DNA of 64,000 nt from Takakia lepidozioides (Eukaryota; Plantae; Bryophyta), in assembly GCA_030704615.1 (NCBI GenBank), contig CM060731.1, positions 86,924,001 to 86,988,000 of the forward strand, given 5' to 3'. Position 1 is the first letter of the stretch. Each line of letters opens with the position of its first letter. The notes beneath the pieces are model-generated. The model was given only the letters and a program-made list of their open reading frames with translations. It was not told the DNA's origin and made no database searches. Below, one piece after another: positions 11,590-61,814 of the stretch. Both the position numbers and the translations under genes were made by a program.

Positions 11590-12680
11590 CAGCAACCGAT
11601 ATCACTGGCGGTCGCTTTTATTTTTTATTTTTTGTAAATGTAGCGAACGCGATGTAATAGCGGTCATCTTTTGTTTTTTCGTAAATTCAGCGACTGCCAG
11701 AACTGTCGGTCGCTCATAATATATTTTATGTAAATGGAGCGACCGCCATTACTGGCGGTCGTTTTTATTTTTATTTTTTTTGAAAATTCAGCGATCGCCA
11801 TTACTGGCGGTCGCTTATTTTTTTAATTTTGGAAAATAGATCGACCGCCATTTTTTGCGGTCGTTTTTTTTGGTTTTTAAAGGTGGCGGTCGCTTCTACG
11901 AAGTGTGCCCTGCGCGTGGAGCGAGGAATGAGGGGGGGGGGGGGGGGGCATATAAGCTCCGAGTCATTCTCCCCTCACTTCCATTACTGGCGGTCGCTTG
12001 AAGTTTTTTCTCTTGAAAAATGCAGCGACTGCCATTACTGGCGGTCTTTTTTATTTTATTTTTTTGCGAAATGGAGCGACCGCCAAGGTGGCGGTCGCTT
12101 CTACGAGGTCTGCCCTATGCGTGGAGCGAGGAATGAGGCGAGGGGAGGGATATATTTTTTGTAAATACAGCGACCGCCATTACTGGCGGTCGTTTTTATT
12201 TTAATTATTTTGGAAATGGAGCGACCGCCATTACTGGCAGTCGCCACAATTGTTTTTTTTGTAAATGCAACGACCGCCATTAGTGGCAGTCGCTTTTATT
12301 TCAATTTTGTTGGAAATGGAGCGACCGCCATTACTGGCGGTCGCTTTTATTTTAATTGTTTTGAAAATGGAGCGACCGCCATTACTGAAGTCACTGTAAT
12401 TATTTTAGTTATAAATGACGATTTAATTTCAATTTGTTTGGAAATGAAGCGACCGCCGTTACTGGCGGTCGTTTTTTTTTTTTTTTTTTTGGAAAATGGA
12501 GCAACCACCATTACTAGCGGTCACTTTAATTTTAATGTCACTGTAAATGCAGCGACCGCCAATGCTGGCGGTCGCTTATTTATTTTATTTTGGAAAATGG
12601 AACGACCGCCAGTTCTGGCGATCGCTCATTTATTTTTTTTCGAAAAATGGAGCGACCGCCAAGTGGGCGGCCGCTTCTAG
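11590..12680. repeat. Second GCGACCGCC/GGCGGTCGC subterminal array, with partially duplicated promoter-like blocks
   Basis: Repeated GGAGCGACCGCCATTACTGGCGGTCGC units. The block GCCCTGCGCGTGG...GGGGGGCATATAAG occurs at about 11907-11956 and about 12688-12727. Confidence 0.88.
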
Positions 12681-12714
12681 AAGATTTGCCCTGCGCGTGG
12701 CTCGAGGAAGGGGG

Positions 12715-12730
12715 GGGGGCATATAAGCCA
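12715..12730 (+). promoter_or_regulatory. Putative TATA box of the downstream RING-finger gene
   Basis: GGGGGCATATAAGCC is followed by a C/T-rich leader, a GT-AG intron (12977-13039) and an ATG at 13041. Confidence 0.45.
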
Positions 12731-13040
12731 AGGGAGGCTCATTCTCCCCTCACTTCCTCTCTACACAACTTTTGTGTGCGTGGCATTTAATTATTCCACG
12801 ACACGTAGTCACGTGGAGAAGGAGGCCATTGGCTGGGTGGGGGGTATTTTTTGCCGCGATTTTTGTGAGGTCGTTGCAGAATGCTCCCATAGGCCCTCCT
12901 CAGGCTTCCAGGATCATTTTATTCTACAAAATTATCTTTTAGGAACTTTTCTGACACCTACTCAGATTCATTTCCGGTGAAGAGTTTAGAGTTACGTCTT
13001 ATTAGTAAACCTCGTTACGTGTTGCTCCGATTGTTGCAGA

Positions 13041-29707: not shown

Positions 29708-30547
29708 TGTTAGAGGACTGTCTGGGACTTAGACACTTAAACGGGATCTGTAGGGTACCCTTAATTTTTGCACAGACTGAGACCAACAGGAGCCTTAGGG
29801 GTGACAACAGCGCACTGTAGAGGGGGGTTACACAGCCCGTCACAGTAGTCACAGCCGACACAGCCCGTCACAGTCGTCACAGCCGACACAGCCAACACAG
29901 CCCGTTACAGTCATCACAGCCGACACAACCACACAGCCCGTTACAGTCGTCACAGCAGCCGACACAGCCGACACAGCCGACACAGCCACACAGCCAGTCA
30001 CAGCCCGACACAGCCAAACACAGTCGCACAGCCAGTCACAGCCCGTCACAGTTTCACACAGCCAGTCACAGCTTGACACAGCTGTCACGATCATAGGGAA
30101 CGGAGAGCAGGACAGGGAACGACTGTGGGAACAACACCTGCGAAGGGAACATGTTAGTTCACAGACGACGGTTAGTGAGGGAAACGGTTAGAACCACGGG
30201 TAGGAAGATAAAGGGAGAAGCGGGGAATTTTGGGAATATCATTCGGTGGAGGACTTCTTGGTCATGGAGGAGAGGGGATCGGGCAGAGATTAAGAACGGA
30301 AGTGAAGATAGAGAGATGATGAGTAGATGCTTGTTATATGCAAGGCTGTAATGATATTGTAGAGCACATTAGAGACACAATGGCTTCGGCCTGATACCTG
30401 ATAAATCATAATCGGATACTTTTACGATACAATCACACTGTGTAGAGAGATCTGAGTGAAGCTGTGGAATGAATGGATGAGTTGATGGAATCCAATAGAT
30501 TGATAAAGCAAACTGATACTTAATTATCAATGGTAAGGTAGCTAACA
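29708..30547 (+). mobile_element. LTR-like repeat with internal CACAG tandem repeats (copy 1)
   Basis: Ends TGTTAG...CTAACA. Colinear with 38138-38860. CACAG(C/T)C repeats at about 29830-30090. No TSD. Confidence 0.55.
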
Positions 30548-31718: not shown

Positions 31719-32218
31719 NNNNNNNNNNNNNNNNNNNNNNNNNNNNNNNNNNNNNNNNNNNNNNNNNNNNNNNNNNNNNNNNNNNNNNNNNNNNNNNNNN
31801 NNNNNNNNNNNNNNNNNNNNNNNNNNNNNNNNNNNNNNNNNNNNNNNNNNNNNNNNNNNNNNNNNNNNNNNNNNNNNNNNNNNNNNNNNNNNNNNNNNNN
31901 NNNNNNNNNNNNNNNNNNNNNNNNNNNNNNNNNNNNNNNNNNNNNNNNNNNNNNNNNNNNNNNNNNNNNNNNNNNNNNNNNNNNNNNNNNNNNNNNNNNN
32001 NNNNNNNNNNNNNNNNNNNNNNNNNNNNNNNNNNNNNNNNNNNNNNNNNNNNNNNNNNNNNNNNNNNNNNNNNNNNNNNNNNNNNNNNNNNNNNNNNNNN
32101 NNNNNNNNNNNNNNNNNNNNNNNNNNNNNNNNNNNNNNNNNNNNNNNNNNNNNNNNNNNNNNNNNNNNNNNNNNNNNNNNNNNNNNNNNNNNNNNNNNNN
32201 NNNNNNNNNNNNNNNNNN
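31719..32218. other. Assembly gap (500 N)
   Basis: Run of N. Confidence 1.
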
Positions 32219-32909: not shown

Positions 32910-34547
32910 TGATGGGGACATCAACCTTGGAGCGTGGGGAGGAAATGCATGCTTAGCCCGGCGGTAGCTAGCTTAGGAATCCGATTACAAAAACTTGTAT
33001 TGTACAAAAAAATTTGTTATAAAGGAACTGGGTTCCGAATGTTGTGCGTCCTATTTTGTTTGGAATGGTGATGCATGGTATGGTTGGCTAGTGTGTAGAA
33101 TGCATGCTAGCTTATAAAAGTGGGAGAGGTAAATTGGGTTAATCGTGTGTTTGCGTAGTGCCGAAATCGGGTGACTCCATCCAAGGGGCAAGGAAACTTG
33201 CGACTTCTTTGGAAGTTCACGTGCTAGTGCGCACCTGGCACGTGCGCGTACTATAACTGCGCTACCGAGGGGGTTGCTTGTAGTGCGGGCTAACGCGGAA
33301 GCTACGTGCTTCCGTTCACGTACTATAATCGTGTAGCCTGGGACGAAGTCGTAGTGCGGCTTTGGCGTGTTCCCGTACCTCAGGCCAGCCATTCCAAGGC
33401 GGACCCAATTGTAGTGATTGGGGCGCACGGTTGGTTCAAGGTTATCTTCCTAGTCAAAGAGGGTTCCAGGTGAACCCTTGCTCAAGGTGATGCCAAAAGC
33501 GGCATCATGAGCAGTCGCAAGCAATGTTGTTCCAGTAAGGCGATTCGATCCTCAAGGAGGATCGTTCTTGCCTTGAAGTAGGCCAAGATGAGTGCACTGG
33601 GAGGAGCTTGAGAGGCCTCCACCCTTGGCCGGGACTTGGAGGAAGTCGGCCGAACTAGCTAGTGGAAGGAGAGTCAAGTGTGGGGGTTTGGTTCTTGCCA
33701 TGGGACGCCATGGTACGGAAACAAACTCCTTGATGTGGGACGCCCACAACTTGGATGTTCGTTTCTACAAAATGGACAAGTCGATGAGGACATCGACTCC
33801 CTGTTGGTAGGGGTGTGTGTCGCGGCCCTTTGCCTTGAGAGTAGGGGGGTCGGGACACATGAGGGGCTGCCTCTGTGGTGGTGGGGGCAGCGGCAGCGAT
33901 AGGTATGGGGGGGCTGAAGCACCTTGAGTGCCCAAGGCACTCAGGGAAGCGGAGGCGCTCACTAGGTGGAAGCCCCGCACACCGGGTTGCGGTGGGGTGG
34001 CTCCACAAGGGGTGGTGGTTAGCTTAGTGGGACTTAGTGGGGGTGGCATAGGACTCACCATGGGGGCGGAGACCTCGTGGTGGGAGTCGTGGGGAGTCTT
34101 GGACTCATCACGGTCCATAGGGGCCGTGGTGAGCGGGCCAAGACTCACCGTGACTCACCACCGGGAATCGAGGGTCTTCGTGGTGGTTCGCCATAAAATG
34201 GCATGGCTGGTTGTGAAACCCCCCGCGGCAGCTACAGAAGTATATATATGGAGTAGTAACCCCCGAGAACGGTGCAAAGCCCGTTGGTGACCAAAAACTA
34301 GTGAGTAAGCGAGCGAGCCGGAAAGCGAACAAAGAGTGGGGAGCTGTTCCGGACTGCCATCTACCAAAGGGAATTCCACTAGGCCCAAAATAGGTGGAGG
34401 GTCTATCGGGAGAGCGAAGGGGACCGTTATGTCCCGGTGAGCAGCCGAAGCTCCAAGTTGCCCGGCGGCCGGTTGGGAGTCAGGCGCGCGCATCAAAGCG
34501 AGTAACTATGACTTGAGGGGGAGCTTACCGAAGTGAGGTGCGCGACA
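32910..34547 (+). mobile_element. Partial second copy of the chromovirus: 3' UTR, PPT and 3' LTR (33818-34547), inserted into the DNMT ORF
   Basis: Reverse-complement match to 43735-45365. LTR runs TGTCGCGG...GCGCGACA and abuts the DNMT frame after WWTNLM. Confidence 0.9.
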
Positions 34548-36840
34548 CATCAAGTTAGTCCACCATAGCCGTGGACGATCAGCCCGTGATCCCACTGCAG
34601 CTGCATCCAGCAACACTGCTGACCCAAGCCACGACCGGACTTGATGCACACTGGCCATCACCCTGGCCTGAGAATCGCCCATCAGTGGCACATTCTCCAA
34701 GATGTATGCTGGAGATACAGCTTGATGAAGCTGTGAGTAGCACAACACCCGCACCATCTCCTAAAACAGACCCAACCTCGAGTCTCGCAATCCATTGCCA
34801 TGCCCAGCTGATGAATGCCCTTGGCAGGGCCAACCTGCCACTACTAGATCAATGGAGCCAACCCGCTCCAAATCCTGCGCCCCCAGCAACGAAATGTCTG
34901 CTGGCAAGGCCTGCTGATATCCACGAGCTGTAGACACCGACAACAACTCAGGGTACTACTGCACCAACTGAGCAATATGGCGTATGGAGACGAGTCGTGC
35001 AGTCTCATCCCTCTCCACATACAGGTAACGTCGTACCCGTACACCTACCTGTAGAACAGCAGCCAATCCGGTGCTGATCCCGCCAAACAAGTCCTGAAGG
35101 CAAATGCCTTCATCCGGACACTGCCACACGATCGGTGTGGTGTCCAATGGTGACAACTGAGGTGGTCCTGGTGCAATCCCCGCACTGTCCTCCTCTCCAA
35201 ACGGTACAAAAGCCTCTTCCCAGGCTTGTTGCACCTGTCGATCAGCAACCCGCTGCAAATCCTTGCTCGAGCCCCACAATGGAGTGTGAGCAACCATGGC
35301 AGGCAACTCCGCCATACCATACATGTCATCCTACTCTTTTGGAGGCGACACATCTTCTGAATGAGTATTCCCATCCAACAACTCTCTAGGCCAAGTCACT
35401 GCAGCAGTGAATGCTGCCAGTGTTGGCATCTTGCCTCGCTGGGCAACCGCAACTCCTCCTATGAACGTCACAGGGAGCTACACACGCCGGCCCTCCCCTG
35501 ACTGCCATCCAGGCCTATAGGAAGCTGACTCCTCCCAAAAATCCAGGGTGAAGCCCATGAGGTACAACACTGCCCCACCAACAAGGACATCGTACGAGAC
35601 CGCGTCTGTCACAATGGCCTTGGCTCTCATCACTGATCCATCCGTAGGATGATCCGGCTGTAGTTTGATAGCCAGCTCACGCCGTGTCATGTCCCGAACC
35701 TGCTCTGATCCTCCCAGAGATGTCTGTATCTGGAAAGGGCACGGCTCCATATCCGCCTCCGTGAGGCCCAAGCCTGCAATAGCATCTCTACCCAACATCA
35801 ATGGCTGAGCTCCCGAGTCCAACAAGACCCGCAGTGGCTGGTACCTCTTGCCTGCCGGTCCACTCAAACAGAAAATGTCATCCTGGTTGTCTAACATGAC
35901 AACTCCAGGTGTCACCATGGCGCGCTCAATGGCTGGCCTAGCTGGCAGCTCCATCAACCTGGCAGCTACAGCTTGCCATGGCGCCACCGTGGCAGTCTTG
36001 ACCCTCACATCCGAGGATCCCTCCGGCACTACACCTCCCACTATCTCCGCAGAAGATGAAGTAACCTCCCCACTCTCAGAGAGTGTAGCTGCCAGCCTGA
36101 ACACCTCAGCTGGTCTTACCCCCGGCGTCGCAATCATGGTAGCTGAGAACAATGGAGCCTGGCACACAGCTGTGGCCGCCCCCAGCAGCACACTAGTTGC
36201 CATAGCCTTGGCAACACTAGGTAGTGGTGCTGCCCGTGTAGCTCTCCCCAATGGCATAGTAACCTCCGCCTCGGTAACAGTCGGGCGAGAACTAGGTGCC
36301 ATGGACGGCGTTGACACTGTCTCCGCCAATGTGAATGACTGATGAAGCCTGGCCTGACGGCTTGCCTCCCCACGCTGTGGATCCAACTCCACCTCCGCAC
36401 CCTGTGGCTCAGGAACTCATGCTGCTCCTCGAGTCACTGCCGCAGCTGACTCCACTTGCATTAGTGGTAGTCCTGCCCCGCACATAGTGGTAGTGGTAGT
36501 GGTGCCCGGCAACTAGTGGTAGTGGTGCCCCACCCACAGTGGTAGTGGTAGTGGCACCCCTCACTAGTGGTAGTGCTACCCCACAGATGAATCCCATGCC
36601 TCCCATGTCTCCTCCCTCAGGAGCAGGAGGTGGACCATCCGGCCTTGGAGCCGGTACCACCTGAGCTGTGGCCATGGCATCGAGCCTCTACTCTAGCTGC
36701 TGAAGCCGGTTGGCCATGCCTTGGTCACCACCCCGACCTCCGCGTCCTTGTCCATGTTGAGCTTGCCCTTGGCCTGCACCTCGTGCCTGGCCACCTCGTC
36801 CTCTCTGGGCTGCTCCACCTCGCCCCCGGCCACCATTGTT
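34548..36840 (-). pseudogene. Retroelement polyprotein: Gly/Arg-rich gag-like tail - aspartic protease - DNMT3-like C5 cytosine methyltransferase
   Basis: ORFs starting at 36392, 35324, 34946 and 34757 share one frame. Protease LLDSGAQ and YDVLVG. DNMT motifs: I DLFGGISTG, II YVERD, III ADI, IV DLVVAGWPCQ, VI YILENV, VIII RADRPRLWWTNL. Interrupted by TAG stops. Confidence 0.88.
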
Positions 36841-36844
36841 CCCG

Positions 36845-38137
36845 GTGGAGGAAGGTGGGAGTGAGACAGCCGCAGGGCAGGAAGAGGAAGAACAGCCATT
36901 ACAGGAAGAGGGCGGACTTACAAAGAGGGCCTGTATAGACGAAGATACGACGAGCGCAATAGCGCAAGTGATGCTCACTTCCACGGCCGATTCTACACTA
37001 CAGAGAGAAGGAGATGATCAACAGCCAGAAAATCCTATACTGCAGGGAGAAGGAAATGTGCAGCCCCACGAGACGACTTTGATGGAGATTATACCTGCCA
37101 ATTTCAACACGGAGGTTTGGCAAGAAATGGCCACACAAATGGAACAGCAAGCAAGGGAGGTGGAAAGCATAGTTTCGCAGCAGCAGCAAGCGATGGAGGT
37201 GACGCAGAAACAACAGCAGTTCTTCCCTCTGCTGCAGTAGTGTGGTATTGCTGGTCAGAACCTTTGTCATCTGGGCTTTAGTGGCTTTGATTTGTTTTGT
37301 GATTGCCTCAATTTCTGTCTCCGTTGTTCGGTATTGATCTCTCTCCGCGTCAAGATCTGCGTGGACTGCCTGAGTTTCTTGCTTCTGCCTCTGCCACTTC
37401 TATTCCCATTTAGCTTGGAGTTCCTCCAGGTGGTTGTACTAGCGGAGCATAGCACTCTTCTGGTCCTCCAAAACAGCAATTGTAACCTCATGGTTACATG
37501 TCGTTCGTGCTGCTGCAAGCTCCTACTGGTGCTTGGCTTTGATGTGCTCCAGGATCATATTAAGTTGCTCTGGGGTTATGTAATCTTTGGCTCTGTTCAT
37601 GTATATCGTTGCCTAATTCAGAGCTTGTACTGCCTGGAGAACGACATTGCCTGGTGTTTCCTCCAATCACGTGTCTCATGCTGCTGTAATAGCAGTAATT
37701 CCAAATTGGAATGGTTCTTTTGCTGGGTGGATGACTGGATGGGTGCATTGGCTAAGTAGGTGCGGCCATCTGTCGCAGACTTGGTGAGTGTGCAAGCAGA
37801 GAGGGCAGTATGGTGAGGGGAAGAGGTGTGGCCATAAGACGTGTTTGCGTTGGTGACCCATATATTGTGTGTAGCAAAATTTAAGTGTTTGTATAATTTG
37901 AGCATCAGTTGCGGCTTTGGAGTGCCAGAAATAATTGGAGAGTTTGTGGTGTAGTATGGTGGATAGTGTCCATTTTTTAATATGGATTTTGGTGTGGCTC
38001 ATGGATGCCCTAGTTTGTTGTGTGGCCTCCTTAGTAAGGGTGGTGAGGAGATTGCGTATTGGCTTAGGGTCAGGGGGGTTGGGGACTGGGTGGATCAGCC
38101 ATAACGGGTGGGTATGCGCAATGTGGATAGGATCTAA
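36845..38137. mobile_element. Mosaic of Gypsy extra-ORF fragments (+ then -) and an RLE-LINE zinc-knuckle fragment (-)
   Basis: 36845-37240(+) matches about 61500-61800 (EEEGSETAAGQEEEE). 37240-37720(-) is a coiled coil. 37720-38130(-) matches about 61830-62100 (LKFCYTQYMGHQRKH..YCPLC..WPHLLSQC). Confidence 0.75.
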
Positions 38138-38860
38138 TGTTACAGGGCTGTCTGGGACTTAGACAGTTTTACGGGTTCTGTGGGGTACCCTTAATTTTGC
38201 ACAGGCCTTAAGGTGTGGCAGACTCAGACCAGCACAGGCCTTAGGGTGGCAGACACAGGCTCACACAGTCAGCAGTCACAGGCTTATACAACCTGTCACA
38301 GCATGTCACAGTTCGTCACAGCTTGACATAGCACACAGTCGACACAGTCTGTCACAGCACTAAACGTCATAGCCAGTCACAGCCCGTCACAGTGTCACAC
38401 AGGTCACAGCTTGACACATGGAGCGGTTATCACAGGAGGGAACGAGTGTGCGGGAACGTCATCAACAGAGGGAACGGCAGTTCTTACGAACTATCTTGGC
38501 TGGCAGTTAGTTAGTTAGTTAAGCGGTTAGAACAGCTTGCAGACACATTATGCAGGGTAGCTACATGGAGGGGATCACTTCTTGGAGGAGGATCTTGGAG
38601 CACAGGGACGAGAGAGCACACGGAGGAGGAGAGACGATCTGTTGTAGCTTGATACATGCAAGCTGTAGAGATGTATTGTAGGGCAGAATAGAGACACCAT
38701 GGCTTCGGCCTGACACATGATAGATATTAATACGATACCTATTTTATACTCACACTGTGTAGAGAGACCTGAGTGAAGCTGTGGAATGAATGCTTAAGTA
38801 GATGGAACACGGCAGATTGCAGAAGCAATCCGATACTTAATCATAGGCAGTAGGGTAACT
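38138..38860 (+). mobile_element. LTR-like repeat with CACAG repeats (copy 2)
   Basis: TGTTACAGGGCTGTCTGGGACTTAGACA...; colinear with 29708-30547. Confidence 0.55.
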
Positions 38861-40984
38861 GGGGATTGCAAATCCATGAGCATGAGCGGTGAGCGCATGA
38901 GCATGAGCAAAGGTTCCCGATCCTCGCCCGAACCTACACCGAACCACCTCGAAGGTGAAGGTCGGCAACCAAAACTGCCGACTTCATGCATCTTGGTAAC
39001 AGTCCACGGAAATAGGAGGTGGAACGCCTATGACCGTGGCCTGCAGGTGAGGTGTTATAGTCGCCATAGACTATAGCACCACATTCGTTATTGGGGGGGG
39101 TCCGTAGGGCAATATTGGGTGTTATGGTTGCCACCAACTATATCATCCCCACTAAAAGCTGGATCTGTATAAAAATGACAACTAACCCAGGTAGATGGGG
39201 GAGGTTGAAGGAAGCAGTGTATGCGTTGTCTCTTTTTGGACTAATACTTCTCTAGTCCCTTAATTTGTGACAGACACAACAGTCTATTGAACTAAGGTTG
39301 GATAAGTTAGGTAAGAATTTATTATTTACGCATGGTGTGTGAGGTTTAGTGATAGATTTAGTTGAATGGAGCAGAACATATTCTCATTTTAGGTTGGGAG
39401 GGATGGTTATTATTGTGCTTATAACTTTGTATGTCTGTTGTAAGGTCTTGACCATGTTTGTTCAACATAGGAGTGGTTTGTGTGCATAGTAGTACAAAGT
39501 AAAAAGCTATTTGTTCTTGAAATGGACACACATGAAGTGTGGTTGTCTGTGAGGGAAATAGTGTGCACATGGAGTGTCAAATTTTGTGGCATAGCTGTTG
39601 TCATGTCATGGCAACGGTCTTCACAATATGAGCAGACCAGTGATTGACTCATTTGGATATTTGTCGAAGGTCCTTTATGGCTTCAGCAGACCAGGGCTCA
39701 GCACTCCAAGAATTCCAAACTTTGCTTCAACACTTGATTGCCGTTCTGACTCCTCCCATAGCTCAGTATCCACGAGTTTGTTATGTGCCAGTGATTACAA
39801 AAGCTGGAGATAAAAAATGTAGGATAAACCTAGGCAATCCCTCGTCTGAGGTCAAGCAAGCACCATCTTGGGACTACCTAGGTCTCACCAACCTTTGTTC
39901 TCAACCCTCCCTTTCTGCTTGTAATCTGGGTAGTTGCATCTGCAGACCTCATTGCGGACGTCCCATGAAGACTGACTATCCCGAGTTTACCCTCAGATGG
40001 TTCATCTAACATATATGAAAGGCATGGAAATGAAGACAATGATGCGCGTTCGAAGGCTTCTCAATGGTTGCTAACTTTTGTACTCCAACTATCTACAGAA
40101 ACCCATTTGGAAGCACACTCCAAACCAGAATCTTGCTTTCACCAAGATGCTTTGTACACCCTTCTTTTGTGAAACCAACATTCGTGGTGATGATGATGCG
40201 CAACTAGAGGCTTCCACACCGGGCTGAAGCACCCTTCTCAACGTGCAATTTGGACAAGATAGACTATATTAGCCCCCGCGAAAACACATTTAGAGGGAAA
40301 AAATGATTCAAAGTTCCCTTCAGCCAAATAGCGTGCTCACTCCTTCATGAAACCATGACATTTCACCAAGCAGGTCGGCGATGCATTTGAAGAGCTGTGT
40401 ATGTGCCATGTCTGCATAACCATTTTGAAAAACAAAATGATATAATATATCATGAGATATAAAAAATTGATGGTACTATAAATGAGAGTAATCACATGAA
40501 GTTAAATGAAAGACTTTTTAACTTGGTTTGCTAGAGTACCACGAAGAAGGATATGCCTACGTGGAGGGTGCAAAGTACATATTAAGTAGCAAATAACTAC
40601 GACTCATGCAACTCCGTGTCATTTCGATCAGCTTCAGGTCATTGTCTTTGTGAGCTTTGTTTGTAGAATGTGAAGGGGTTTGCAGAGTTAGGATAGTTCA
40701 GTAGAGGGAAACATATATGGTCTCAATGGAATTCAACTACCAATTACATAATGTCCGAAGAAGACCACTTGGCAATCCACGCATAGACCCACCCTCGCTG
40801 GGTAGTTGGCACCGACTTCATATTTAACAATCATTTCTGCGTTCTGTCGCAACGACAAACTTAAAAACTACAAATGCCCAAGAGAAAATAAATTACTTCA
40901 TGCAAACATATTGGTTCTTTGAACTCATCCATGTTCATTAGAGAGGTAAATAGTTTTAAGAAAATAGTAATAATAATAATGAAT

Positions 40985-41492
40985 CTATTAGTCGGCGTCG
41001 ACTTATCTTCGACTATAAAAAATCAGTTTGGGTTTAAGTTCATCAGAGAATGGGAAATAAAAAAGAAAAGAAAATCAAAAAACTATTTGTCGGCGCCGAC
41101 TTATCTTCAACTATGAACACAAAATAACAGTTTGAATTTAAAGTCGGTACCGACTTTAACAATGGGAGAGAAAAAAAAAAAAACAAAAAACTATTAGTCG
41201 GCGCCGACTTATCTTCAACTATGAACGCAAAATAACAGTTTGGATTTAAAGTCGGCACCGACTTTAACGATGGGAGGGAAATAAAACAAAAAAAACTATT
41301 AGTCGGCGCCGACTTATCTTCAACTATGAACGCAAAATAACAGTTTGGATTTAAAGTCGGCACCGACTTTAACGATGGGAGGGAAATAAAACAAAAAAAA
41401 CTATTAGTCGGCGCCGACTTATCTTCGACTATGAACACAAAAATCAGTTTGGGTTTAAAGTCGGCACCGACTTTAACCAAGGGAGCCAATAA

Positions 41493-41525
<33 letters not shown>

Positions 41526-42445
41526 TATTAGTCGGCGCCGACCTATCCTCGATTATGAACCCCAAAAATCAACTTAGGTTTAAAGTCGGCACCGACTTTA
41601 ACCAAAGGAGCCAAAAAAAGAATTAATAAATTAATAAAAACTATTAGTTGGCGCCGACTTATCCTCGATTATGAACTGGAAAAATCAGCTTGGGTCTAAA
41701 GTCGGCACCGACTTTTAACCAAAGGAGCAAAGAAAAAAGTAAAAAGTAAAAAACTAGTAGTCGGCGCCGACTTATCCTCGATTATGAACACAGCTTGGGT
41801 TTAAAGTCGGCACCGACTTTAACGATGGGAACTTTACACCCATGAGCATGAGCAAAAATATTCATGAGCAAAGATAAAAACAACATTATTTGGATGAAAT
41901 ATAGTATTTGCTCTAGAATCTTGATTTAGTCGGCGCCGACTTATAGGTTTTTCCTTAAAAAAAGAAAAAAAAACTGATTTTTTGTGTTCAAACTTGAATA
42001 AGTCGGCGCTGATTTATAGTTTGTTTGTTTTTTTTTTTTTTTCGGTTTTTTTCTCCCATCGTTAAAGTCGGTGCCGACTTTAAACCCACACCGATTTTTT
42101 GTGTTCATAGTCGAAGATAAGGTCGGCGCCGACTTATATTTTTTTTTCCTTTTTTTTTCCTTTTTTTTCTCCCATCGTTAAAGCCGGTGCCGACTTTAAA
42201 CCCACACTGATTTTTTCTGTTCATAGTCGAAGATAAGTCGGTGCCGACTTATAGGTTTTTCTCTTTCTTTCTTTCTTTCTTTCTTTCCCTCCCTTTGATA
42301 AACTGTAACCCAAACTGATTTGTATATTCCTAGTCGAATATAAGTCGGCACAGACTTCTAATTTATTTAGTTTAATATTTTGTTTTTGCTTCTGATGAAC
42401 TTAAACCCAAACTGATTTTTTGTGTTCATAATCGGAGATAAGTCT
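40985..42445. repeat. ~105-120-bp tandem array containing AGTCGGCGCCGACT / AAAGTCGGCACCGACTTT palindromes; orientation flips near 41920
   Basis: About 8 direct units followed by about 4 inverted units; (TAA)n at about 41495-41523. One unit is split by the MITE at 42450 and resumes at 43585. Confidence 0.9.
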
Positions 42446-42449
42446 GCAC

Positions 42450-43584
42450 CATTGTTGGACATACCAGACTGGTCCTGGTACCAGCCCTGTCACAAAACTT
42501 TCATACCAGTCTGCTCTATACAATGGTGGATGTATTTTTTCCCAGATAGTGGTATGAGTATGAGTATCATGACTACAATACCAGCTGGTATGAGATATCA
42601 ATTCTGGTATCATTCCAAAGCCATTTGACTTACAAGTTTATCAAATATCAAGTGAAAACAAATATAATAAATATAAAGTAAATATAAATAAATACATGTA
42701 TGTACACATAAACTAGTATAGTACACATACCAGAGTAAATGAGGAAGACGACCGGGGGTACTCCAATATTGTAGCTGGTATGAGAAAACGGATACTAGCT
42801 TGGTCTGGTATATGACCTGGTATTGTAGAACTTAAGGCCAGGCTGGTGTGGTCCAGTGTTGGACTGGTATGTCCATTTTTTAATACCAGACTGGTCCTGG
42901 TATGAAGGGTCCCACCCCTTTTTCATACCAGGCTGGTATAGGTATCTATACAGGTATGAGCAACTTGGGTATGAATCTGGTATGAGTAGTTGTACTTTGG
43001 GTTGTATATGAGTATGGTACTGGTATTGCCCTTTCTCTGTAGTGATACTGGGGGGGGGTATGAGCACTGGTATGGTATTTCTGTAGCTCACCATACATAG
43101 AAATAAATGTCATTTAGCACATAGCTAATTTCAATCCAAGCCCTGGAACACTAGGCAAAAAAAGATAACACCAAAGTCGCACGAAACAGCAAATGAAGTC
43201 CTAAATGGCAACATGGAGCCTTGAAATAACCAAATTGTAGTACAGGGTATAACTAGCTGCACTAACATATACTCATACCTACCTCCATTCGCCATGAACT
43301 CACTGCAATATTGGTATCGGGACCATGCTATTCCTCCATATACCCAGACTGGTATGGTATGTGTGCGGGGAATCCTAAAGACATACTCCCCCCAGTACGT
43401 GTATCACATGGGTACACTGGTTCTTTCATACCCGACTGGTATGTTCTTCAATATATATATTCATACCTGTATTCCATACCTAGGTTAAACCAGGTATACT
43501 AGTCCAACACTGGTGTGGTCCCTGATAATAGGGTTGATACCAGCGTTAATACTCGGGTCTGATACCCATACCAGACCAACACTG
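42450..43584. mobile_element. Non-autonomous hAT-type MITE
   Basis: TIR CA(T/G)TGTTGG...CCAACACTG. 8-bp TSD GTCTGCAC (42442-42449) / GTCGGCAC (43585-43592). Interior rich in CATACC/GGTATG. Confidence 0.8.
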
Positions 43585-45363
43585 GTCGGCACCGACTTAT
43601 AATTTGCTTATTTCAATGAGTCTAGGATTAATATTGTGTCCATTATTAGCTATGTAGTTGGTTCTGAGTCTAGAATTGCAGCGACAAACTTGCATTTACG
43701 GTAGTAACATCAATCAGTCCGCTGGGACATCTCCTGTCGCGCACCTCACTTCGGTAAGCTCCCATTCAAGTCATAGTTACTCGCTTCGATGCGCGCGCCT
43801 AACTCCCAACCTGGCCGCCGGGCCAACTCGGAGCTTCGGCTGCTCAACGGGACATAACGGTCCCCCTTCTATCCCCCAACAGACCCTCCACCAATTTGGG
43901 CCTAGTGGAAATTCCCTTTGGTAGATGGCGGTCCGGAATAGCTCCCCACTTCTTGGTCGCTTTCCGGCTCGCTCACTTACTCACTAGTTTTTGGTCATCA
44001 ACGGGCTTGCACCGTTCTCGGGGTTACTACTCCCTATATATACTTCTGTGATTGTCCGCGGGGGTTTCACAAACAACCATGCCATTTTATGGCGAACCAC
44101 CACGAAGACCCTCGATTCCCGGTGATGAGTCACGGTGAGTCTTGGCCCACCCACCACGGCCCCATTGGACCGTGATGAGTCCCAAGACTCCCCACGACTC
44201 CCACCACAAGGTCTCCGCCCCATGGTGAGTCCTATGCCACCCCTACTAAGTCCCACTAAGCTACCACCACCCCTTGTGGAGCCACCCCCATCGCAACCCG
44301 GTGTGCGGGGCTCCACCTAGTGAGCGCCTCCGCCTCCTTGAGTGCCTTGGGCACTCAAGGGTGCTTTAGCCCCCCGTACCTATTGCTGCCACTGCCCCCA
44401 CCACAGGGGCAGCGCCTCCTGCGTCCTGACTCCCTACCCTCAAGGCAAAGGGCTGCGACACACACCCCCACCAACAGGGAGTCGATGTCCTCATCGACTT
44501 GTCCATTTTGTAGAAACGAACATCCAAGTTGTGGCGTCCCACATCAAGGAGTTTGTTTCCGTACCATGGCGTCCCATGGCAAAGAACAAACCCACACTTG
44601 ACTCTACTCTCCACTAGCTAGTTCGGCCGACTTCCTCCAATTCCCGGTCAAGGGTGGAGCCTCTCGAGCTCCTCCCAGTGTACTCTTATTGGCCTACTTC
44701 AAGGCCAAGGAACGATCCTCCCCGAGGATCGAATCGCCTTACTGCAACAACATTGCTTGCGACCGCTCATGATGTCGTTTTTGGCATCACCTTGAGCAAG
44801 GGTTCACCTTGAACCCTTTTTGACTAGGAAGATAACCTTGGACTAACCATGCGTCCCAATCACTACAATTGGGTCCGCCTTGGAATGTTGGCCTGAAGTA
44901 TGGGAACACGCCGAAGCCGCACTACGACTTTGTCCTGAGGCTACACGATTATAGTACGTGAACGGAAGCACGTAGCTTCCGTGTTAGCCCGCACTACAAG
45001 ACAACCCCCTCGGTAGCGCAGCTATAGTACGCGCACGCGCCAGGTGCGCACTAGCACGTGAACTCCCAAGGAAGGTGCAAGTTTCCTTGCCCCTTGGATG
45101 AGAGTCACCCGATTTCGGCACTACGCAAACACACGATTAATCCAATTTACCTCTCCCACTTTTGTAAGCTAGCATGCATTCTACACACTAGCCAACCATA
45201 CCATGCATCACCATTCCAAACAAAATAGGACGCACAACATTTGAAAACCATTTCATTTATAACAAAATTTGTACAATACAAGTTTTTGCAATCGGATTCC
45301 TGAGTTAGCTAAGCCGGGCTAAGCATGCATTTCCTCCCCCATGATCCAAGGTTGATGTCCCCA

Positions 45364-48300
45364 TCAACATTTCTTCCGCTTTTGAGGTCGCCCTTCAAAA
45401 GCTGCAACCGCCTCGGATGCGTTTCCCATTTCTGAGGCACGCACCCAAGATGCCTCCACATGATGATAGCCCTTCCATTTCACGAGATACTCCGTTTCTC
45501 AATTCTTGAACCTCCTCGACTTAAGCACTGCTTCCACCTCGTACTCAGGTTCATTTTCATGATCCAACAGCACAGGTGGCGGACGCAACACTTGATGCCG
45601 ATTCGGACGCGCTTCATCTTTGAAGTAAGGCTTCAAAAGGGAGACGTGGAATACCGGATGCACCTTGTTGTTTGCCGGCAGCTCCAATTCATGCACATCC
45701 TCATTCATAACTTTTCGGATGCGAAAGGGTCCCGCATACGGAGGTACGAACTTCGTACTCACTTCGGGAGGTAGTCGGAAATTCTTGATATTCAACCAGA
45801 CCTCCGTGCCTGCCTCAAACGTAACTTCCCTCCGCTTCCGATTCACCTGCCGTTCATACCGTTTCCTAGCTTTGGCAATGTTGTACTTTGCGAGCTTCAA
45901 CAAACGCTCGCGTTCTTCCAGCAACACTGTTGCTGCCGGTTCCTCAACGTCTTGGGCGGCCCAACTTGTCGGCACCAGAGGTGCTTTTCCATAGACCAAT
46001 ACGAAAGGGGAAACTCCCGTTGCAGAGTGTTTTGTGTTATTATAACAGAACTCTGCCACATCCAAGTGCTCCACCCAGTCCGATTGGTCTGCCGACACGT
46101 AATTCCGCAGGATCTGCTTCACCATGGAATTCACCCTTTCTGTTTGGCCATCCGTCGTAGGTCGGAAGGCGGTGCTCATCTTGAGCCTTGTCCCCATTTT
46201 CTTCCAAAGTGCCCTCCAAAATTTACTCGTAAATTTTGGATCGCGGTCCGAGACAATATCCTTCGGGAGTCCATGATGCTTGAAGACGTGGGCAAAATAA
46301 AGTCGTCCCATCTCCTGCGCCGTTGCCGTCTCCTTGGTGGGGATGACATGGCCCATTTTACTGAACCTATCCACCACCACCATGATTGCATCGAATCCTT
46401 TTGACAGCGGCATAGCAGTCATGAAATCCATCGAGACAATTTCCCAAGACCCTTCTGGAATCGGCAAGCGTTGTAACAGTTCCGCTTGCTTTTTGTACTC
46501 GCTCCGGTTTTGTTGGCATGTGGTGCATGACTTGACATACTCCTCGGCCTCCTCCCTCAGTTTGGGCCAGAAATACTCTTTCTTCAAGAGTGCCACGGTG
46601 CGCTTGGCTCCGCCATGGCCCGCAAGCGGACCATCATGACATTCTCTCAAGAGACTATCTCTGATCCCTCCCTTCGGCACGTAGAGACGCTTTTGCTTGT
46701 ACCGGAGCAGTCCATTTTGCAAGTGGAACTTTGATTTAACCCCCATCCTCAAGTCCCGACTTTGCCATCTCATTCTTTCGTTAAGCCTTCCAGATCTTCC
46801 TTTGGAACGCCGTCTCGCCCCTGTACACCAACAAGAGCTGCTACTTTCTACTTAAAGCATCGGCCACCACATTGTCCCGTCCCGGTTTGTACTGGATATC
46901 CACGTCGAACACCGCCAAAGTATCTTGCCACCTAAGTTGTTTTGGGGACAACTTAGGCTGCGTGGCAAAATACTTCACCGTGACATTGTCCGTGAATACC
47001 TTCACCGGGTTGGAACCAATATAGTGGCGCCAAAGCTCAAGGCAATGCACCACTGCCTTCATTTCTTTCTCATGCGTAGGCCACCGTCGTTCCACTTCAT
47101 TCAGTTTCTTACTTTCGTAAGTCATTGGATGTCCATCCTGCATGAGTACACCCCCTATTGCGAAGTCTGACGCATCCGTATGAATCTCAAATGGACGGTC
47201 GAACTCCGGGATTTTGAGGACTGGAGCTTCCGCCATCCGCTGCTTCAACTCGACAAAAGCTTGGCCACAAAAGGTGTTCCGTACCCAGACTTTGGATTTA
47301 CACAGAAGGTCTGACAGCGGCCCCGCGATCTTGGCGAAATTTCTCACATACTTCCGGTAATAGGAGGCGAGTCCTATGAAGCAAGATCGCTCTCACCTTC
47401 CTGTCATCCATTTTGATCCCATCATGTGTAATCACATGCCCCATGAACTTCACTTTTGTGACCCCGAATTCGCACTTTGAAGCTTTGGCATACAGCTTCC
47501 CTTCCCGCAATTTCTGGAACACCCTTTTGAGGTGCTCTAGGTGCTCTTCCTTTGTTTTCGAGTACAACAATATGTTGTCGATGTATACGATCACAAAGTC
47601 ATCCAACCACTCCTGGAAAAGACTGTTCATTAGCGTGCTAAAGGTCGCGGGTGCGTTGGTGAGCCCAAAAGGCATCACCAAGAAATCATACGAACCATAT
47701 CTTGTCCTGCACGCGGTCTTCTCCTCATCTCCTTCTGTCACTCAGATCTGATGATACCCAGAGCGCAAATTGATCCGGCTGAAATACTTTGCTCCTGCCA
47801 AGTGATCGAAGAGGTCGTCGATCCTTGGCAAAGGGTACTGGTTCTTGATAGTCATCTTATTCAAGGCCCTGTAATCGACACACATCCGCAGCGTCCCATC
47901 CTTCTTGTCTGCGAATAGCATCGGGGCTCCGTAAGGTGACTTACTTGGCCGGATGTACCCCTTTGACATTAGATCCTTGAGCTGAGTCTTCAGCTCGACC
48001 AATTCTCTGTGACTCAACCGGTAGGGCGCCTTGGCAGGCGGTTCCGATCCCGGTATCACCTCAATCTTGTGGTCAACTCCCCTTCGCGGTGGCAAGCCGC
48101 TTGGTAAATCCTCCGGCATCACATCCTGGTATTTCTCCAAGATCCCCTTGATCCAATCTGGGCTCGGCTCCCCATCGCCTTCTCCTTTCACTTGTCTTAC
48201 GTAAAGCAAAAACTGGGGCTCCTCCACGGCCCACTCCCTTGCTGACAGAAGGTTTATTCGCCCTCCCACGGGTTTGGACGTTTCCGACACTCGTAAAACT

Positions 48301-49628
48301 TCGCCACCATTCCCACACGACAGCGTGACTACTCTTTTGCGGCCATCTATGACCGCTCTGGATTTGCTCAAAAAGGTCATCCCCAAAATGAGATCCACTC
48401 CATCGATCTCGCAAATGGTGAAGTTCTCACGTCCCTCCCAACTCCCCAATTGAAGAGGAACATCGAACGCCAACCTCGTCGCCAATTGTGGTTCTTCTTT
48501 GGCAGAACACACCTCAATAGAGGCCCCCATGTCACTTGTCGGGAGCCCCAACTTTCGTGCCGTTGCCGGTGTCATGAAGGAGTGCGACGCTCCTGTGTCC
48601 ACCAACAACGACACGTTAGTTCTGGAAATTATCCCATCCACGAACAATAACTGACTTCCTTTACGTAGGGCGCCAGTTTCCTGATACAACTCACAAGAGT
48701 AGTTGCCTACCTTGCAAGTCTTGGCGACCACCGCTTCCACCAAGCGGCTGATGGACTCTTCCGACAGCTCTGTGGTCGCCCGAGTCATGTTCAATTGTCG
48801 GGGCTTTGCGCACTTCTTAGCCATGTGCCCGGGCTCCCCGCAATTAAAGCACACTCCATCGAAGGTCGCCTTTTGTCCGCCATAAGGCGCCGCACCTGAT
48901 TTTCCTTTCGGAGCACCGGGTGTCGTCTTGGCGTGTGAAGGCCCTCGTGCCATTGTCGCTGCGTGGCCTATCCCACTTCTTCACCCTCCCGCCGGGTCTT
49001 CTTGTGGTTAAGCTCCGTACGGCCTTGTCTTTCGCCCCTAGGGACATCCAAGAAGCATTCAGCCCTCTCAATTGCCTCGTTCAAAGTTTTAGGTGGCTTC
49101 TCCTCCAACTTCCGCCTGGCCCATGGGGCCAGTCCCACCACAAAGTTGAAGACCATTTCTGGTTCTGCCATGTCCGCGACTTTGAGCAACAGCACATTGA
49201 AAGCCTGAACATATCCCCGAATGTCATCTGTTTGCTTCAAATTCCTCATCTTATCCCGGGCGAGCTAGGACGCATTGAGGGGCACAAACTGTCTCTTCAT
49301 CAGTTCCTTGAACCCACTCCAGTTCAAGGTTTCCGGGTTTGGACCTCGGTCGTGAAGGCGTTTCTGCCACCATTGTTGAGCATATCCCCTTAAATAGGTG
49401 GGAGCCACTTCCACCCAATCCTCGTCACTCAACTTGGCCGCCCGGAAGTACTGCTCTAGCTCCAAGAGCCAGGTGTTGAGTGACTTCCGATTTCGGACGC
49501 CCTCGAAGGTGCCGGGTTCCTTAGGCTTCACCTTAAACTCCGCTTCGGTGACATGTCGCCCCCATCGGGCTCACCAGGATAATCATTTTTCGGGCTGTTC
49601 CGCTTTCGCTTTGGCTTGCCCGACCCCA
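45364..49628 (-). pseudogene. gag-pol (gag, CCHC knuckle, protease, RT, RNase H, integrase, chromodomain), decayed
   Basis: [14 protein letters not shown]; [11 protein letters not shown]; [11 protein letters not shown]; MPFGLTNAPATF; YIDNIL (catalytic D to N); HTDASD; SMDF..VSDRD..TDGQTER; HPVFHVSLLK; YEVEAVL..YLVKWKGY. Stops and frameshifts present. Confidence 0.93.
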
Positions 49629-49670
49629 TGATGAGGCCGAACCCAAGGACGATCGCGTACTGAACTCTAA

Positions 49671-49682
49671 GCTCTGATACCA
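49671..49682 (-). promoter_or_regulatory. Primer-binding site (tRNA-iMet)
   Basis: TGGTATCAGAGC on the minus strand, 2 nt after the 5' LTR. Confidence 0.9.
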
Positions 49683-50542
49683 AGTGTCGCGCACCTCACC
49701 TCACTTCGGTAAGCTCCCCTTCAAGTCATAGTTACTCGCTTCGATGCGTGCGCCCAACTCCCAACCTGGCCGCCGGGCCAACTCGGAGCTTCGGCTGCTC
49801 ATCGGGACATAACGGTCCCCCTTCTCTCCCCCAACAAACCCTCCACCAATTTGGGCCTAGTGGAAATTCCCTTTGGTAAATGGCGGTCCGGAATAGCTCC
49901 CCACTTCTTGGTCGCTTTCCGGCTCGCTCGCTTACTCACTAGTTTTTGGTCACCAACGGGCTTGCACCGTTCTCGGGGTTACTACTCCCTATATATACTT
50001 CTGTGACTGTCTGCGGGGGTTTCACAAACAACCATGCCATTTTATGGCGAACCACCACGAAGACCCTCGATTCCCGGTGATGAGTCGCGGTGAGTCTTGG
50101 CCCACCCACCACGGCCCCATTGGACCATGATGAGTCCCAAGACTCCCCACGACTCCCACCACAAGGTCTCCGCCCCATGGTGAGTCCTATGCCACCCCCA
50201 CTAAGTCCCACTAAGCTACCACCACCCCTTGTGGAGCCACCCCCACCGCAACCCGGTGTGCGGGGCTCCACCTAGTGAGCGCCTCCGCCTCCTTGAGTGC
50301 CTTGGGCACTCAAGGGTGCTTCAGCCCCCCGTACCTATCGCTGCCACTGCCCCCACCACAGGGGCAGTGCCTCCTGCGTCCCGACCCCTTGCCCTCAAGG
50401 CAAAGGGCCGCGACACCTCCACAAATCGTAATAGAACTAGGTATGTTTTTTATTTGTGTAAGTCAAATACATTGTCTCCATAGGCCACTAATCTACATTA
50501 TCATGGACACTGAGCTTCTCTGTCTGACCTATCTATATGGTC

Positions 50543-52568: not shown

Positions 52569-53522
52569 TCAAGTAAGATTGTCCTCATCAAGTTCTTGCA
52601 TTTGGAGTATTCCTCCTTTCAATTCTCCCCTGGGTAGTGCCTTAGCCAGCCTGATAATCATGTGGTCAAGGTGGGGAATGACAGTGCTAGTGCTCACCAG
52701 ATGTTTGATCTCATCTGGTCTGTTTTCTTCATACGCAATCAGAAGATGTTGTGCACACTGATGTTGATCACTTTTGAGAAATACTTCCATCTGAGAACAA
52801 TCGCTATGACATTGTTGGGCCTCCTTGATGTTACCTATATATAAGTAGACAATGATCGCACTCACATAGGCTTTACATTGGCTCTGCGTAGCTTTGCATG
52901 TATCAGCAGCTTGACCCCAACGTAATAACACACTTGCTGCCTCTGGATATCTACGGAGTTTGATATAGAGATTGGCAGCAGCACGGTACGTGTCAAAGGC
53001 CATTTGTTCCCGACCATCACTTTCTAGCATGCTACATGCATTCATATACATCGCCACAGCCTCCTCCGGCTTCGCTTCCTCCACAGCCCTGGCCCCCTTT
53101 GTAAGCGCATCGGCCCCCGGTTGTGCTTTACCACATTGTACATAGAACTCACTGGCTCTTTTGAAAAAATCCACCACCTCGTCCCAATTCCCAAGCTCTT
53201 TTGCTAACACCCCAGCTGATTCCATGTGCTTGCCAGCCGTCCATTGTGCTGATTGTCTTTCTTGCCCTATGGCAGCTTTCTCAAATGCCTTCTTTGCTGC
53301 CTCTGGCATTTTGGCTACTTTGAAAGCCACCGCTGCCTGTTCGTAGAGGGGTGTGGCAGCTGCCCAATCCGGTATCCATCTTGTAAAGCTCAACTGTGTG
53401 AGTTTCTCGGCTTTTCTTACCAGTTTTTCAGCATCTTTCACTTTATCCCTAGGTTTGTCACTTGCTACGCCACGCTCGTCCTCCCCACTACCAAAACCGA
53501 AATCGGGAAGCTTGCCACACAT
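52569..53522 (-). CDS. GSNAP: gamma-soluble NSF attachment protein (gamma-SNAP), intact intronless CDS
   Basis: KAEKLTQLSFTRWIPDW..YEQAA..KHMESA..GREQMAFDTYRA..SQCKAYVSAII..LDHMIIRLAKALP..LDEDNLT matches plant gamma-SNAP end to end. First ATG at 53522. Candidate upstream GT-AG intron at 53644-53532. Confidence 0.92.
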   Translation of the reverse strand: MCGKLPDFGFGSGEDERGVASDKPRDKVKDAEKLVRKAEKLTQLSFTRWIPDWAAATPLYEQAAVAFKVAKMPEAAKKAFEKAAIGQERQSAQWTAGKHMESAGVLAKELGNWDEVVDFFKRASEFYVQCGKAQPGADALTKGARAVEEAKPEEAVAMYMNACSMLESDGREQMAFDTYRAAANLYIKLRRYPEAASVLLRWGQAADTCKATQSQCKAYVSAIIVYLYIGNIKEAQQCHSDCSQMEVFLKSDQHQCAQHLLIAYEENRPDEIKHLVSTSTVIPHLDHMIIRLAKALPRGELKGGILQMQELDEDNLT

Positions 53523-58380: not shown

Positions 58381-59334
58381 CACACATAGCAGGAACGCTA
58401 AACCGTGAGTGGTGAGCTTAGAGCGGTGAGCGGTGAGCTCGAAATCGTGAGCCCATAATATAAATTATGTATGATTATGAGCATGGATGGATCATCAAAA
58501 TATTAAGAAAGGGGACGTATTTTCGCGGATTACTGTATAGCGACCTTACATCCGAGGAAGCAAAAAATTGACAATTCAACAATGACAAAAAATGTACTTC
58601 AAACTATATCAAAAGACTGGAACACAAGATCAATGAATGCATTTGGTTGACACTCACGTAAATACACCAAATTGGTCATAAAAAGCATTGAATCAAATAT
58701 CAGAAGAGTCTTCCACTCCTTTCATAGTTCTGAAGGATAAGATTTCTAGTACAATGTCCCAAAAAGCACCCTATCGGACTTGAAGATTTTTCTTTCTATG
58801 AACAGAGAATCCACTTCCAAATTGAATTGAAGTGCAACATCTTATGCCTCGACAATAACAAACCCACCCTCATCCATACCTAATATGAATGGAATGAATT
58901 TCCATCAACGTATAAAGATGCATCCTAGGCATGTCACAGGCTATTGCAAGCCAAATATGATGCCGGAAACAATGAGAAAGAGAACATGACACTATGTGTA
59001 CAACCTGGAGGGCTATGTACAGTATCATGATAACAAACACACCGCCACAGACTCATCAATAGCACTACAAAGGAAGAATATTTATGAAGTCATCGTATTT
59101 AATTCTTACACATCCCATATCATCATTCTGATTTTATGATTAAAATCCAAATAGAAACTCATACCCATATTTTGCATGATTAGACACTGGACCAAAATAC
59201 TATTTTTTTTAATTTAGTTTTAAAATATCATTTTATCTTATTTCAATAAAAACTTATCTAGGATATTTAAACTGATATGAAGATATAAATATATATACCA
59301 ATATATAAAATTATATATTCAGATTCAAAAGTGT

Positions 59335-60117: not shown

Positions 60118-60809
60118 ATGCCCTACAGAACAGTGAACGAATACGAAACGGCCAACGAGTCACTGATTGTGTTAAACTCCGAGATGTACGCTCCAGATCA
60201 ACCCACCGATAGTGGTAATCATACACCACTACCCTTCGATCATAACATAGAGGCAGAACGACGGCGCAATCCAACGGATTGCCAAAAGACGGCGGATGAT
60301 AAGGGCAAAGCCATTAAACCAAGCTGCAAGTACTGCGCCCACGCCGCCCATCTAAAAACGGACCACGTACCAAAGTGGATGAACACAGCTCAGAGGGATG
60401 AACATAAACTGACCGAAACTAGACAATCATCACGACCATCAGTTTTAAACAAAACAAATCACAAAGAAAAAACCAACGGAAGAAAATCAAGCACAAAAAG
60501 GATGAAGTTTTCTCAAAACCGTTACCTGAGGCTAAATGCTTCTTGGTAAGCCTGGGCCCAACAATTAAAGCTAACTACACTTTAAACCTAGGCAACCAGC
60601 AGGACAAAATTACCTCCATGAGAACCTCGAGAGAAGTTAGAGGAGAAACCTACAGAGAGGAACCCCTACTTAAACCCAGGAGCGAACTCCTCACATTCTC
60701 TTCCGCAAACTGGAAATTACTGTATACACAACTTCCAGTGTGCTTCATACTGCTTGTGATACAGGAATTGGTGCTCCAATTCCTTACAGCAACCGCGAGA
60801 CTAAGAGAA

Positions 60810-61812: not shown

Positions 61813-61814
61813 AA

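Follow-up and report, generated by a model that had tools for sequence, protein, structure and literature searches.

Bryophyte members of a DNMT3-bearing Gypsy retrotransposon lineage carry a conserved stop codon behind the methyltransferase

Introduction

A 64,000-nucleotide stretch of the Takakia lepidozioides genome (referred to here as the window) contains a reading frame in which a retroelement protease is followed by the motifs of a DNA methyltransferase (DNMT). Is this a chance fusion, or the remnant of an element that carries its own methyltransferase and, if so, what would such an enzyme do for it? Why a retrotransposon should keep a silencing enzyme of the host type has been a puzzle since 2018, the sole plant-side example in the texts accessible to us being algal and inactive in yeast.

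According to the accessible text of de Mendoza et al. (2018, PMC5890265), that example, KnitGypsy-Dnmt3 of Klebsormidium nitens, encodes a nonpermuted DNMT3 in Pol, in one open reading frame (ORF) with reverse transcriptase (RT), and has DIRS-type repeats in the layout A-coding-B-A-B. Its domain gave no methylation in yeast, a result that the authors call inconclusive, and the DNMT3 domain of a dinoflagellate retrotransposon carried out de novo CG methylation there. The paper's table holds 33 DNA_methylase genes for Klebsormidium, and the DNMT capture is attributed to the K. nitens lineage. In the literature searched, the name KnitGypsy occurred in one paper only, and no account of a land-plant DNMT-bearing retrotransposon was found; subscription papers, repeat libraries and supplements may hold one. 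As far as the accessible texts go, this agrees with the original prediction, made from the window sequence, which knew of no described land-plant family: only algal examples emerged. The accessible main text of a plant LTR survey (PMC6317226) contains no occurrence of methyltransferase, PHD or Marchantia, that of bioRxiv 10.1101/2021.02.12.428880 neither "retrotranspos" nor Mp4g09160, and that of PMC11982613 nothing relevant.

Results and Discussion

A dead DNMT-bearing retrotransposon fragment

The minus-strand fragment at 36880-34548 comprises a Gag tail, a protease and C5-methyltransferase motifs I to VIII and is evidently dead. Its parts, the insert that cuts it and a second copy are as follows.

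36441-36880, minus strand: Gag C-terminal remnant, an RGG-rich stretch and then an "RLQQLE" helix (tblastn, residues 30-99 of relative P0185 against 36708-36514, E 1e-4)
36458-36585, no strand assigned: local tandem expansion of 29/52-nt units, shifting the frame between Gag tail and linker
35826-36440, minus strand: conserved Gag-protease linker from AVTRG, with TGA at 36419 (alignment with relatives)
35577-35825, minus strand: retropepsin core, LLDSGAQ to YDVLVG (Pfam Asp_protease_2, E 0.0096; conserved in relatives)
35094-35576, minus strand: protease-DNMT spacer, with TAG at 35480 and 35333 (colinear with a Klebsormidium protein)
34548-35093, minus strand: DNMT3-like C5 methyltransferase, motifs I-VIII, catalytic PC intact, TAG at 34958 and 34763, truncated before motifs IX-X (PF00145)
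32910-34547, plus strand: unrelated chromovirus-type Gypsy insert, LTR and adjoining internal sequence, in opposite orientation to the DNMT fragment (92% over 1,653 columns to 43735-45366; TG end at the junction)
164-763, plus strand: second copy of the DNMT family, frameshifted, protease region only (87% nucleotide identity, 215-729 against 35939-35419)

On translation, one minus-strand frame (36440-34548) runs from AVTRG (36440) through LLDSGAQ (35825) and YDVLVG (35594) to DLFGGISTG (35093), YVERD (35021), ADIS (34901), GWPCQ (34835), ILENV (34703) and RADRPRLWW (34586). Methyltransferase motifs I, II, III, IV (GWPCQ), VI and VIII thereby stand in canonical order. The Pfam DNA_methylase search that the original prediction had proposed scored 39.7 bits (E 5e-10; cut-off 22), which together with the translation confirms its retropepsin and C5-methyltransferase motifs in a single frame with the catalytic Cys intact. 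The Asp_protease_2 score was 17.1, below the cut-off, over a region that aligns with relatives.

Some details of that prediction required correction. The claim that all breaks are TAG stops holds from the protease onward (four TAG) but not for the whole frame, whose fifth stop is the TGA at 36419. Protease and methyltransferase do share a frame, but about 160 residues lie between the protease and motif I, where the one had been described as running straight into the other. The RGG-rich Gag-like tail placed upstream via frameshifts is present, separated from the protease-DNMT frame by only one net frameshift, at the tandem expansion. Because Gag and protease of intact relatives share one frame, we regard this break as decay.

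The DNMT ends at 34547, where the junction is the TG end of the chromovirus-type LTR, and motifs IX and X are therefore missing. This insert extends toward an N gap at 31719-32218. Also lost are the left end repeat and the 5' portion of Gag; upstream of 36878 the contig depth falls to about 1e3, from about 7.6e5. Within the 64-kb window there is no RT of the DNMT element, its link to the DNMT being known from relatives only, nor was any further piece of the element found except the second protease-region copy.

Public contigs of the host cover the DNMT fragment at a summed depth of about 4e5 to 1.2e6, compared with 59 to 74 for unique contigs. Such sums do not give a copy number, but it is clear that the host genome carries the family in highly repeated form. 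One run of presumed RNA covers repeats of several families and does not bear on expression. Thirty-two of the contigs diverge from the window sequence at 34548, so other copies lack the chromovirus insertion. At the 36419 stop, nearly all contig depth carries a different letter, and the TGA is therefore private to the window copy.

An intronless, open gamma-SNAP gene at 52572-53465 (minus strand) has its best named matches in Sphagnum and Ceratodon (65-69%). In a tree of 26 rows (the window gene and 25 of the 120 listed matches, picked across lineages) it falls in the moss group (100/98); gamma-SNAP sequences of Sphagnum species form a mutual cluster at 90% or more, so that, judged from this gene, the host is likely a moss other than these. 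This CpG-poor gene is possibly a retrocopy.

The window also holds other repeats. A near-complete chromovirus-type Gypsy of the same family as the insert at 34547 occupies 43735-50416 (minus strand), with LTRs 96.8% identical over 720 bp, a Gag zinc knuckle, protease, RT, RNase H and integrase. The regions 38138-38850 and 29949-30527 hold two LTR-like repeats, related at 69%, that contain CACAG-type tandem arrays and have high depth in public contigs; the former was rejected as the left end of the DNMT element, since low-depth sequence intervenes and it is dissimilar to repeat A of the family. Four regions (8717-9570, 11570-12760, 63240-64000 and 40958-42450) hold arrays built, in both orientations, from two kinds of unit: one of about 50 nt around a GCGACCGCC core, the other of 105-116 nt containing a GTCGGCGCCGAC palindrome. 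They look like DNA-transposon subterminal repeats or satellites. An integrase C-terminal remnant at 59281-61889 (plus strand) is followed by two additional open frames without Pfam names, and part of this region has similarity to 36846-37030, which lies just upstream of the DNMT fragment. Remnants of hAT-type DUF659 and DDE_1 transposases were found at 7122-7916 and 4030-4497, respectively (both minus strand).

Domain order in relatives

Protein searches with the DNMT region yielded 20 longer proteins from 1,296 candidates and 32 similar-sized ones from 2,602. Named relatives, 55 to 75% identical, come from Marchantia polymorpha, Calypogeia fissa and Sphagnum; the window DNMT shares 63 to 75% identity with its best bryophyte relatives. 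Among metagenome sequences, 91 of 108 stretches encode a relative, and the best 80 of the 91 were retained. Wherever these loci left room, the protease lay upstream of the DNMT in 59 of 64 and RT downstream of it in 53 of 59. The complete order Gag-PR-DNMT-RT-RH-IN-PHD, and hence the Gypsy order Gag-PR-RT-RH-IN, is present in 13 of the 80 loci, with a PHD finger C-terminal to the integrase. The DNMT is linked to RT-RH in two Marchantia models (P0006 and P0037) and to the integrase in one from Sphagnum fallax (P0011). The architecture of the family is thus Gag-ZnK-PR-DNMT-stop-RT-RH-IN-PHD.

These counts, with the moss-grouping host gene, uphold the central claim of the original prediction, a Gypsy-type element of a land plant with its own DNMT3-like enzyme between protease and RT; the missing link of the DNMT to RT, integrase and LTRs in other copies, which it had named as grounds for dropping the idea, was not what we found. 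That the window fragment is a dead copy of a bryophyte DNMT-bearing Gypsy family is nearly certain.

The setting of the window copy, which lies amid nested elements and near an N gap and has neither RT nor end repeats, might suggest an assembly artefact, or that a host DNMT3 gene became fused to a retroelement protease by chance at this one locus. However, the same fusion is also found in Marchantia, Calypogeia, Sphagnum, Closterium and Klebsormidium, the window holds a second copy, and public contigs of the host span the stretch at very high summed depth. Klebsormidium KFL_013780020, which has the order zinc knuckle-protease-DNMT and may differ from the element drawn in PMC5890265, is colinear with the window protein over protease, spacer and DNMT (28% over 440 columns, E 4e-33). 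Contig coverage, domain linkage across the 80 loci and this colinearity refute the chance-fusion explanation, to which we assign a negligible probability.

Two further candidates were dropped. A programmed frameshift between Gag and protease was rejected, since the two lie in one frame in intact proteins and in 26 of 40 loci. A viral source was rejected after two scans of viral contigs, which gave distant methyltransferases only, the best segments reaching 22-53% identity with E no better than 7e-15.

Class and conservation of the methyltransferase

In sequence searches of the PDB, DNMT3A/B ranked at the top, DRM and bacterial enzymes lower and DNMT2 far down. The AlphaFold model of relative P0022 (pLDDT 79.9, pTM 0.83) likewise had DNMT3A/B as its best structural match (E 4e-18). 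Best matches of sequence and predicted structure thus support assignment to the DNMT3 class; host DNMT3, DRM, DNMT1 and CMT sequences are not among the rows of our DNMT trees. The DNMT3-like wording and non-DRM motif order noted in the original prediction are consistent with this ranking.

Bryophyte copies retain motifs I, IV, VI, VIII, IX and X intact. Four Marchantia models of 1,278 to 1,281 amino acids possess all seven checked motifs, and these models and several proteins of 1,280 to 1,332 amino acids extend from Gag to past motif X with motifs intact. Unbroken natural frames of Marchantia include Mp4g09160, MpVg00370, Mp5g06330 and Mp5g06860. The catalytic Cys is retained in all 147 alignment rows; it is preceded by Glu (AGWECQ) in 52 of them, from distant relatives. 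The DNMT domain is under purifying selection, in line with the selection test suggested at the outset: dN/dS was 0.41 to 0.54 inside the decayed main metagenome family, and between lineages, where synonymous sites are saturated (pS 0.66-0.79), pN of the DNMT (0.20-0.23, window copy and L030) was lower than that of the protease (0.29-0.33).

A conserved stop codon between DNMT and RT

An in-frame stop separates DNMT and RT in 58 of 59 aligned loci (TAG in 40, TAA in 18). It lies about 80 to 110 codons past motif X, in the same frame as RT, and CAA directly follows the stop position in 59/59. Stops occupy this codon in 56 of 57 copies versus a mean of 0.9% elsewhere in a 200-codon stretch, the next highest position having 12/51. 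The divergent, near-intact locus L030 reads TAG CAA CCA, followed by 766 open codons of RT-RH-IN, and L059 has a stop at the corresponding place. Sixteen relatives were checked for motif X at the protein level; 12 gave a match and 4 none, and 11 of the 12 end 65 to 108 residues later. Since near identity, or the same insertion seen twice, is frequent among the 80 loci, the 59 do not stand for 59 independent events; stop conservation rests on about three nucleotide lineages and on protein ends in Marchantia and Calypogeia.

The original prediction was thus right to place the DNMT between protease and RT, but the bryophyte enzyme belongs to ORF1, with Gag before the conserved stop, and not to Pol. 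With the stop directly after it, the DNMT is expected to be synthesized along with Gag and to outnumber RT. We infer that Gag-PR-DNMT would be synthesized in bulk and RT-RH-IN-PHD by stop readthrough. The accessible text of PMC3542737 gives UAG CAR YYA as the consensus of type I readthrough in plant viruses (tobamoviruses). The stops here resemble this type in a UAG followed by CAR-YY, with the exact CAR-YYA in L030. They differ in that the stop would part Gag-PR-DNMT from RT and in the final C of the main metagenome family, whose context, CAACCC, is one base off the consensus. In 53 of 57 copies an ATG lies two codons past the stop, so reinitiation may be an alternative route to RT. A stimulating RNA stem-loop behind the stop was unsupported, with z about -1 in five of six sequences and -3.1 in one.

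Closterium P0400 and the proteins P0377 and P0380 run from DNMT into RT with no stop. Bulk DNMT synthesis is therefore not required lineage-wide, and the stop looks like a later change on the bryophyte side, as judged from the sequences compared.

End repeats and integration

The search for intact copies with LTRs, as had been proposed, gave the complete domain order but not two equal terminal LTRs; the ends are A...B or A...B-A-B. Among the 38 loci with a self-comparison match, the layout A-orf-B-A-B was found in L035 and L057 (A 339 bp, B 113 bp) and A-orf-B in six loci; L068 shows BAB, and L021 and L044 show ABA, which is truncated or stops at the contig end. At the family level, 8 of 9 loci with both flanks show a 4-bp target duplication. 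A polypurine tract precedes B in 14 of 14 inspected loci, and in 4 of 4 the B/A joint forms a palindrome around a 2-nt centre. The last two features fit a working LTR of B+A, and insertion may proceed from a one- or two-LTR circle cut at the palindrome. Alternatively, A-orf-B could have arisen by later recombination or through collapse in the assembly.

The 11 to 14 bases that follow repeat A are complementary to a stretch within A (for example, L057:1679-2031); at least 12 of 14 bases are complementary in 7 of 17 loci. A candidate tRNA-free self-priming site after repeat A is a lead only.

A probable branch of a known green-plant lineage

A profile search returned 510 clusters at E 1e-30 or better. 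In most of the best 150 with a readable order, the DNMT lies between RNase H and integrase, 35 showing the complete RT-RH-DNMT-IN-PHD; the only named host of this type was the chlorophyte Hariotina. The set P0265-P0414 consists of Gypsy polyproteins, mostly with the DNMT at this position and a C-terminal PHD, in which motif IV is often GWEC, not GWPC. Few of the best 150 have the protease-DNMT order, and the ten that were looked up include five Closterium clusters and Klebsormidium KFL_013780020.

In the FastTree analysis, a clade of 23 rows (0.946) unites the bryophytes with Closterium and Klebsormidium. IQ-TREE, run on 42 of 159 rows with one distant outgroup and rooted on Klebsormidium, its root unsure, placed the window in the bryophyte-type group (100/98), the RH-DNMT-IN (chlorophyte) type splitting off (100/99). 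Both DNMT-bearing types join in RT trees with two outgroups only.

Besides the nonpermuted DNMT3-type domain in a Gypsy polyprotein, the bryophyte family shares A-coding-B-A-B repeats and purifying selection with KnitGypsy-Dnmt3 as described in the accessible text of PMC5890265. It differs in that bryophyte copies halt after the DNMT, whereas KnitGypsy has DNMT and RT in one ORF, and in having land plants as hosts, with far higher repetition in the host of the window. The repeat layout and protease-DNMT order match, and the bryophyte family is therefore probably a land-plant branch of the lineage that holds KnitGypsy-Dnmt3, also present in Closterium, and not, on these sequence comparisons, an independent land-plant capture. 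The paper assigns the capture to the K. nitens lineage, whereas the relatives found here extend to chlorophytes, Closterium, liverworts and mosses.

SymbioDIRS-Dnmt3 and SymbioLINE-Dnmt of Symbiodinium (PMC5890265, accessible text) are likewise retrotransposon-borne C5 methyltransferases, with an A-B-A-B layout in the DIRS form, but they belong to tyrosine recombinase or LINE elements. The bryophyte family has a DDE integrase (rve and Integrase_H2C2, found by Pfam with RT and RH in ORF2 of L030) and 4-bp target duplications, which rule out a DIRS element with its tyrosine recombinase and no target duplication. The host's own bryophyte DNMT3, such as MpDNMT3b (Mp5g09290), has a DNMT3-class catalytic domain in canonical motif order; it is a separate host gene for non-CG methylation (bioRxiv 10.1101/2021.02.12.428880, accessible text).

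Bryophyte members of the DNMT3-Gypsy lineage with a conserved stop behind the DNMT are new here; the lineage itself is already known.

Possible role of the methyltransferase

The cDNA of LTR retrotransposons is made in a cytoplasmic Gag particle. From domain order and stop position, we think it probable that the element packs its DNMT into this particle in bulk and methylates its own new DNA before insertion. DNMT output would be at the Gag level, and occasional stop readthrough would yield the RT-integrase part. The protease would free the DNMT inside the particle, where it would methylate the element's cDNA, and the new copy would arrive premarked, passing as host heterochromatin or silencing itself. 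The PHD finger of the integrase would likely steer target choice, and integration would start from circular cDNA cut within the LTR, as the polypurine tract before B and the B/A palindrome suggest.

Loss of CG could record such self-methylation. CpG observed/expected at codon positions 3-1 was 0.23 in the window copy versus 0.69 to 0.84 in other window elements, 0.04 in RT of L030, 0.54 to 0.56 in the main metagenome family (120 CG columns versus 140 expected) and 0.71 in L059. As a scar, this is suggestive for the window family and L030, weak for the main metagenome family and L059 and uneven overall. The host gene, at 0.26, is as low as the window copy. Unevenness and equal depletion of the host gene count against cDNA self-methylation, as does the inconclusive absence of methylation by KnitGypsy-Dnmt3 in yeast (PMC5890265, accessible text).

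The enzyme might instead act on host chromatin, for example by marking target sites with the PHD finger or by methylating the host in trans through abundant ORF1 protein. ORF1 ending past the DNMT, the many intact ORF1 models in Marchantia, the PHD behind the integrase in 13/80 loci and the weak CG depletion of the main metagenome family are in its favor. However, fusion to Gag and protease puts the DNMT into a cytoplasmic particle, the site of cDNA synthesis, and the Pfam search of ORF1 gave no chromatin-reading domain; we consider this explanation unlikely. Another proposal is that the domain is kept for RNA methylation or for catalysis-independent binding that protects or circularizes cDNA. 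It would suit the inactivity of KnitGypsy-Dnmt3 in yeast (PMC5890265, accessible text), the Glu of distant relatives and the odd, circle-like ends of the family, but the invariant Cys, the intact motifs of bryophyte copies and a fold nearest DNMT3, with DNMT2 far down the list, make it quite improbable.

Methylation of cDNA in the particle, as favored above, can be combined with the other results into one account: a green-plant-wide Gypsy lineage would have carried an active DNMT3 since before land plants, and in bryophytes a leaky stop would have raised the enzyme to capsid level, giving DNMT-filled particles, cDNA methylation and integration from a circle cut inside the LTR. That every part of it holds is possible, though we would sooner doubt it than rely on it.

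The spread from chlorophytes to mosses and the two DNMT positions argue for an old lineage and not a Klebsormidium oddity. Since element frames are filed as hypothetical genes, bryophyte methyltransferase counts may mix host and element enzymes. The conserved stop makes a concrete prediction of dose, DNMT at the Gag level, and intact frames in Marchantia polymorpha, for which methylation mutants and methylomes exist, render the question testable. If the proposed role is true, a land plant with intact copies such as Marchantia would have a second, mobile source of de novo DNA methylation.
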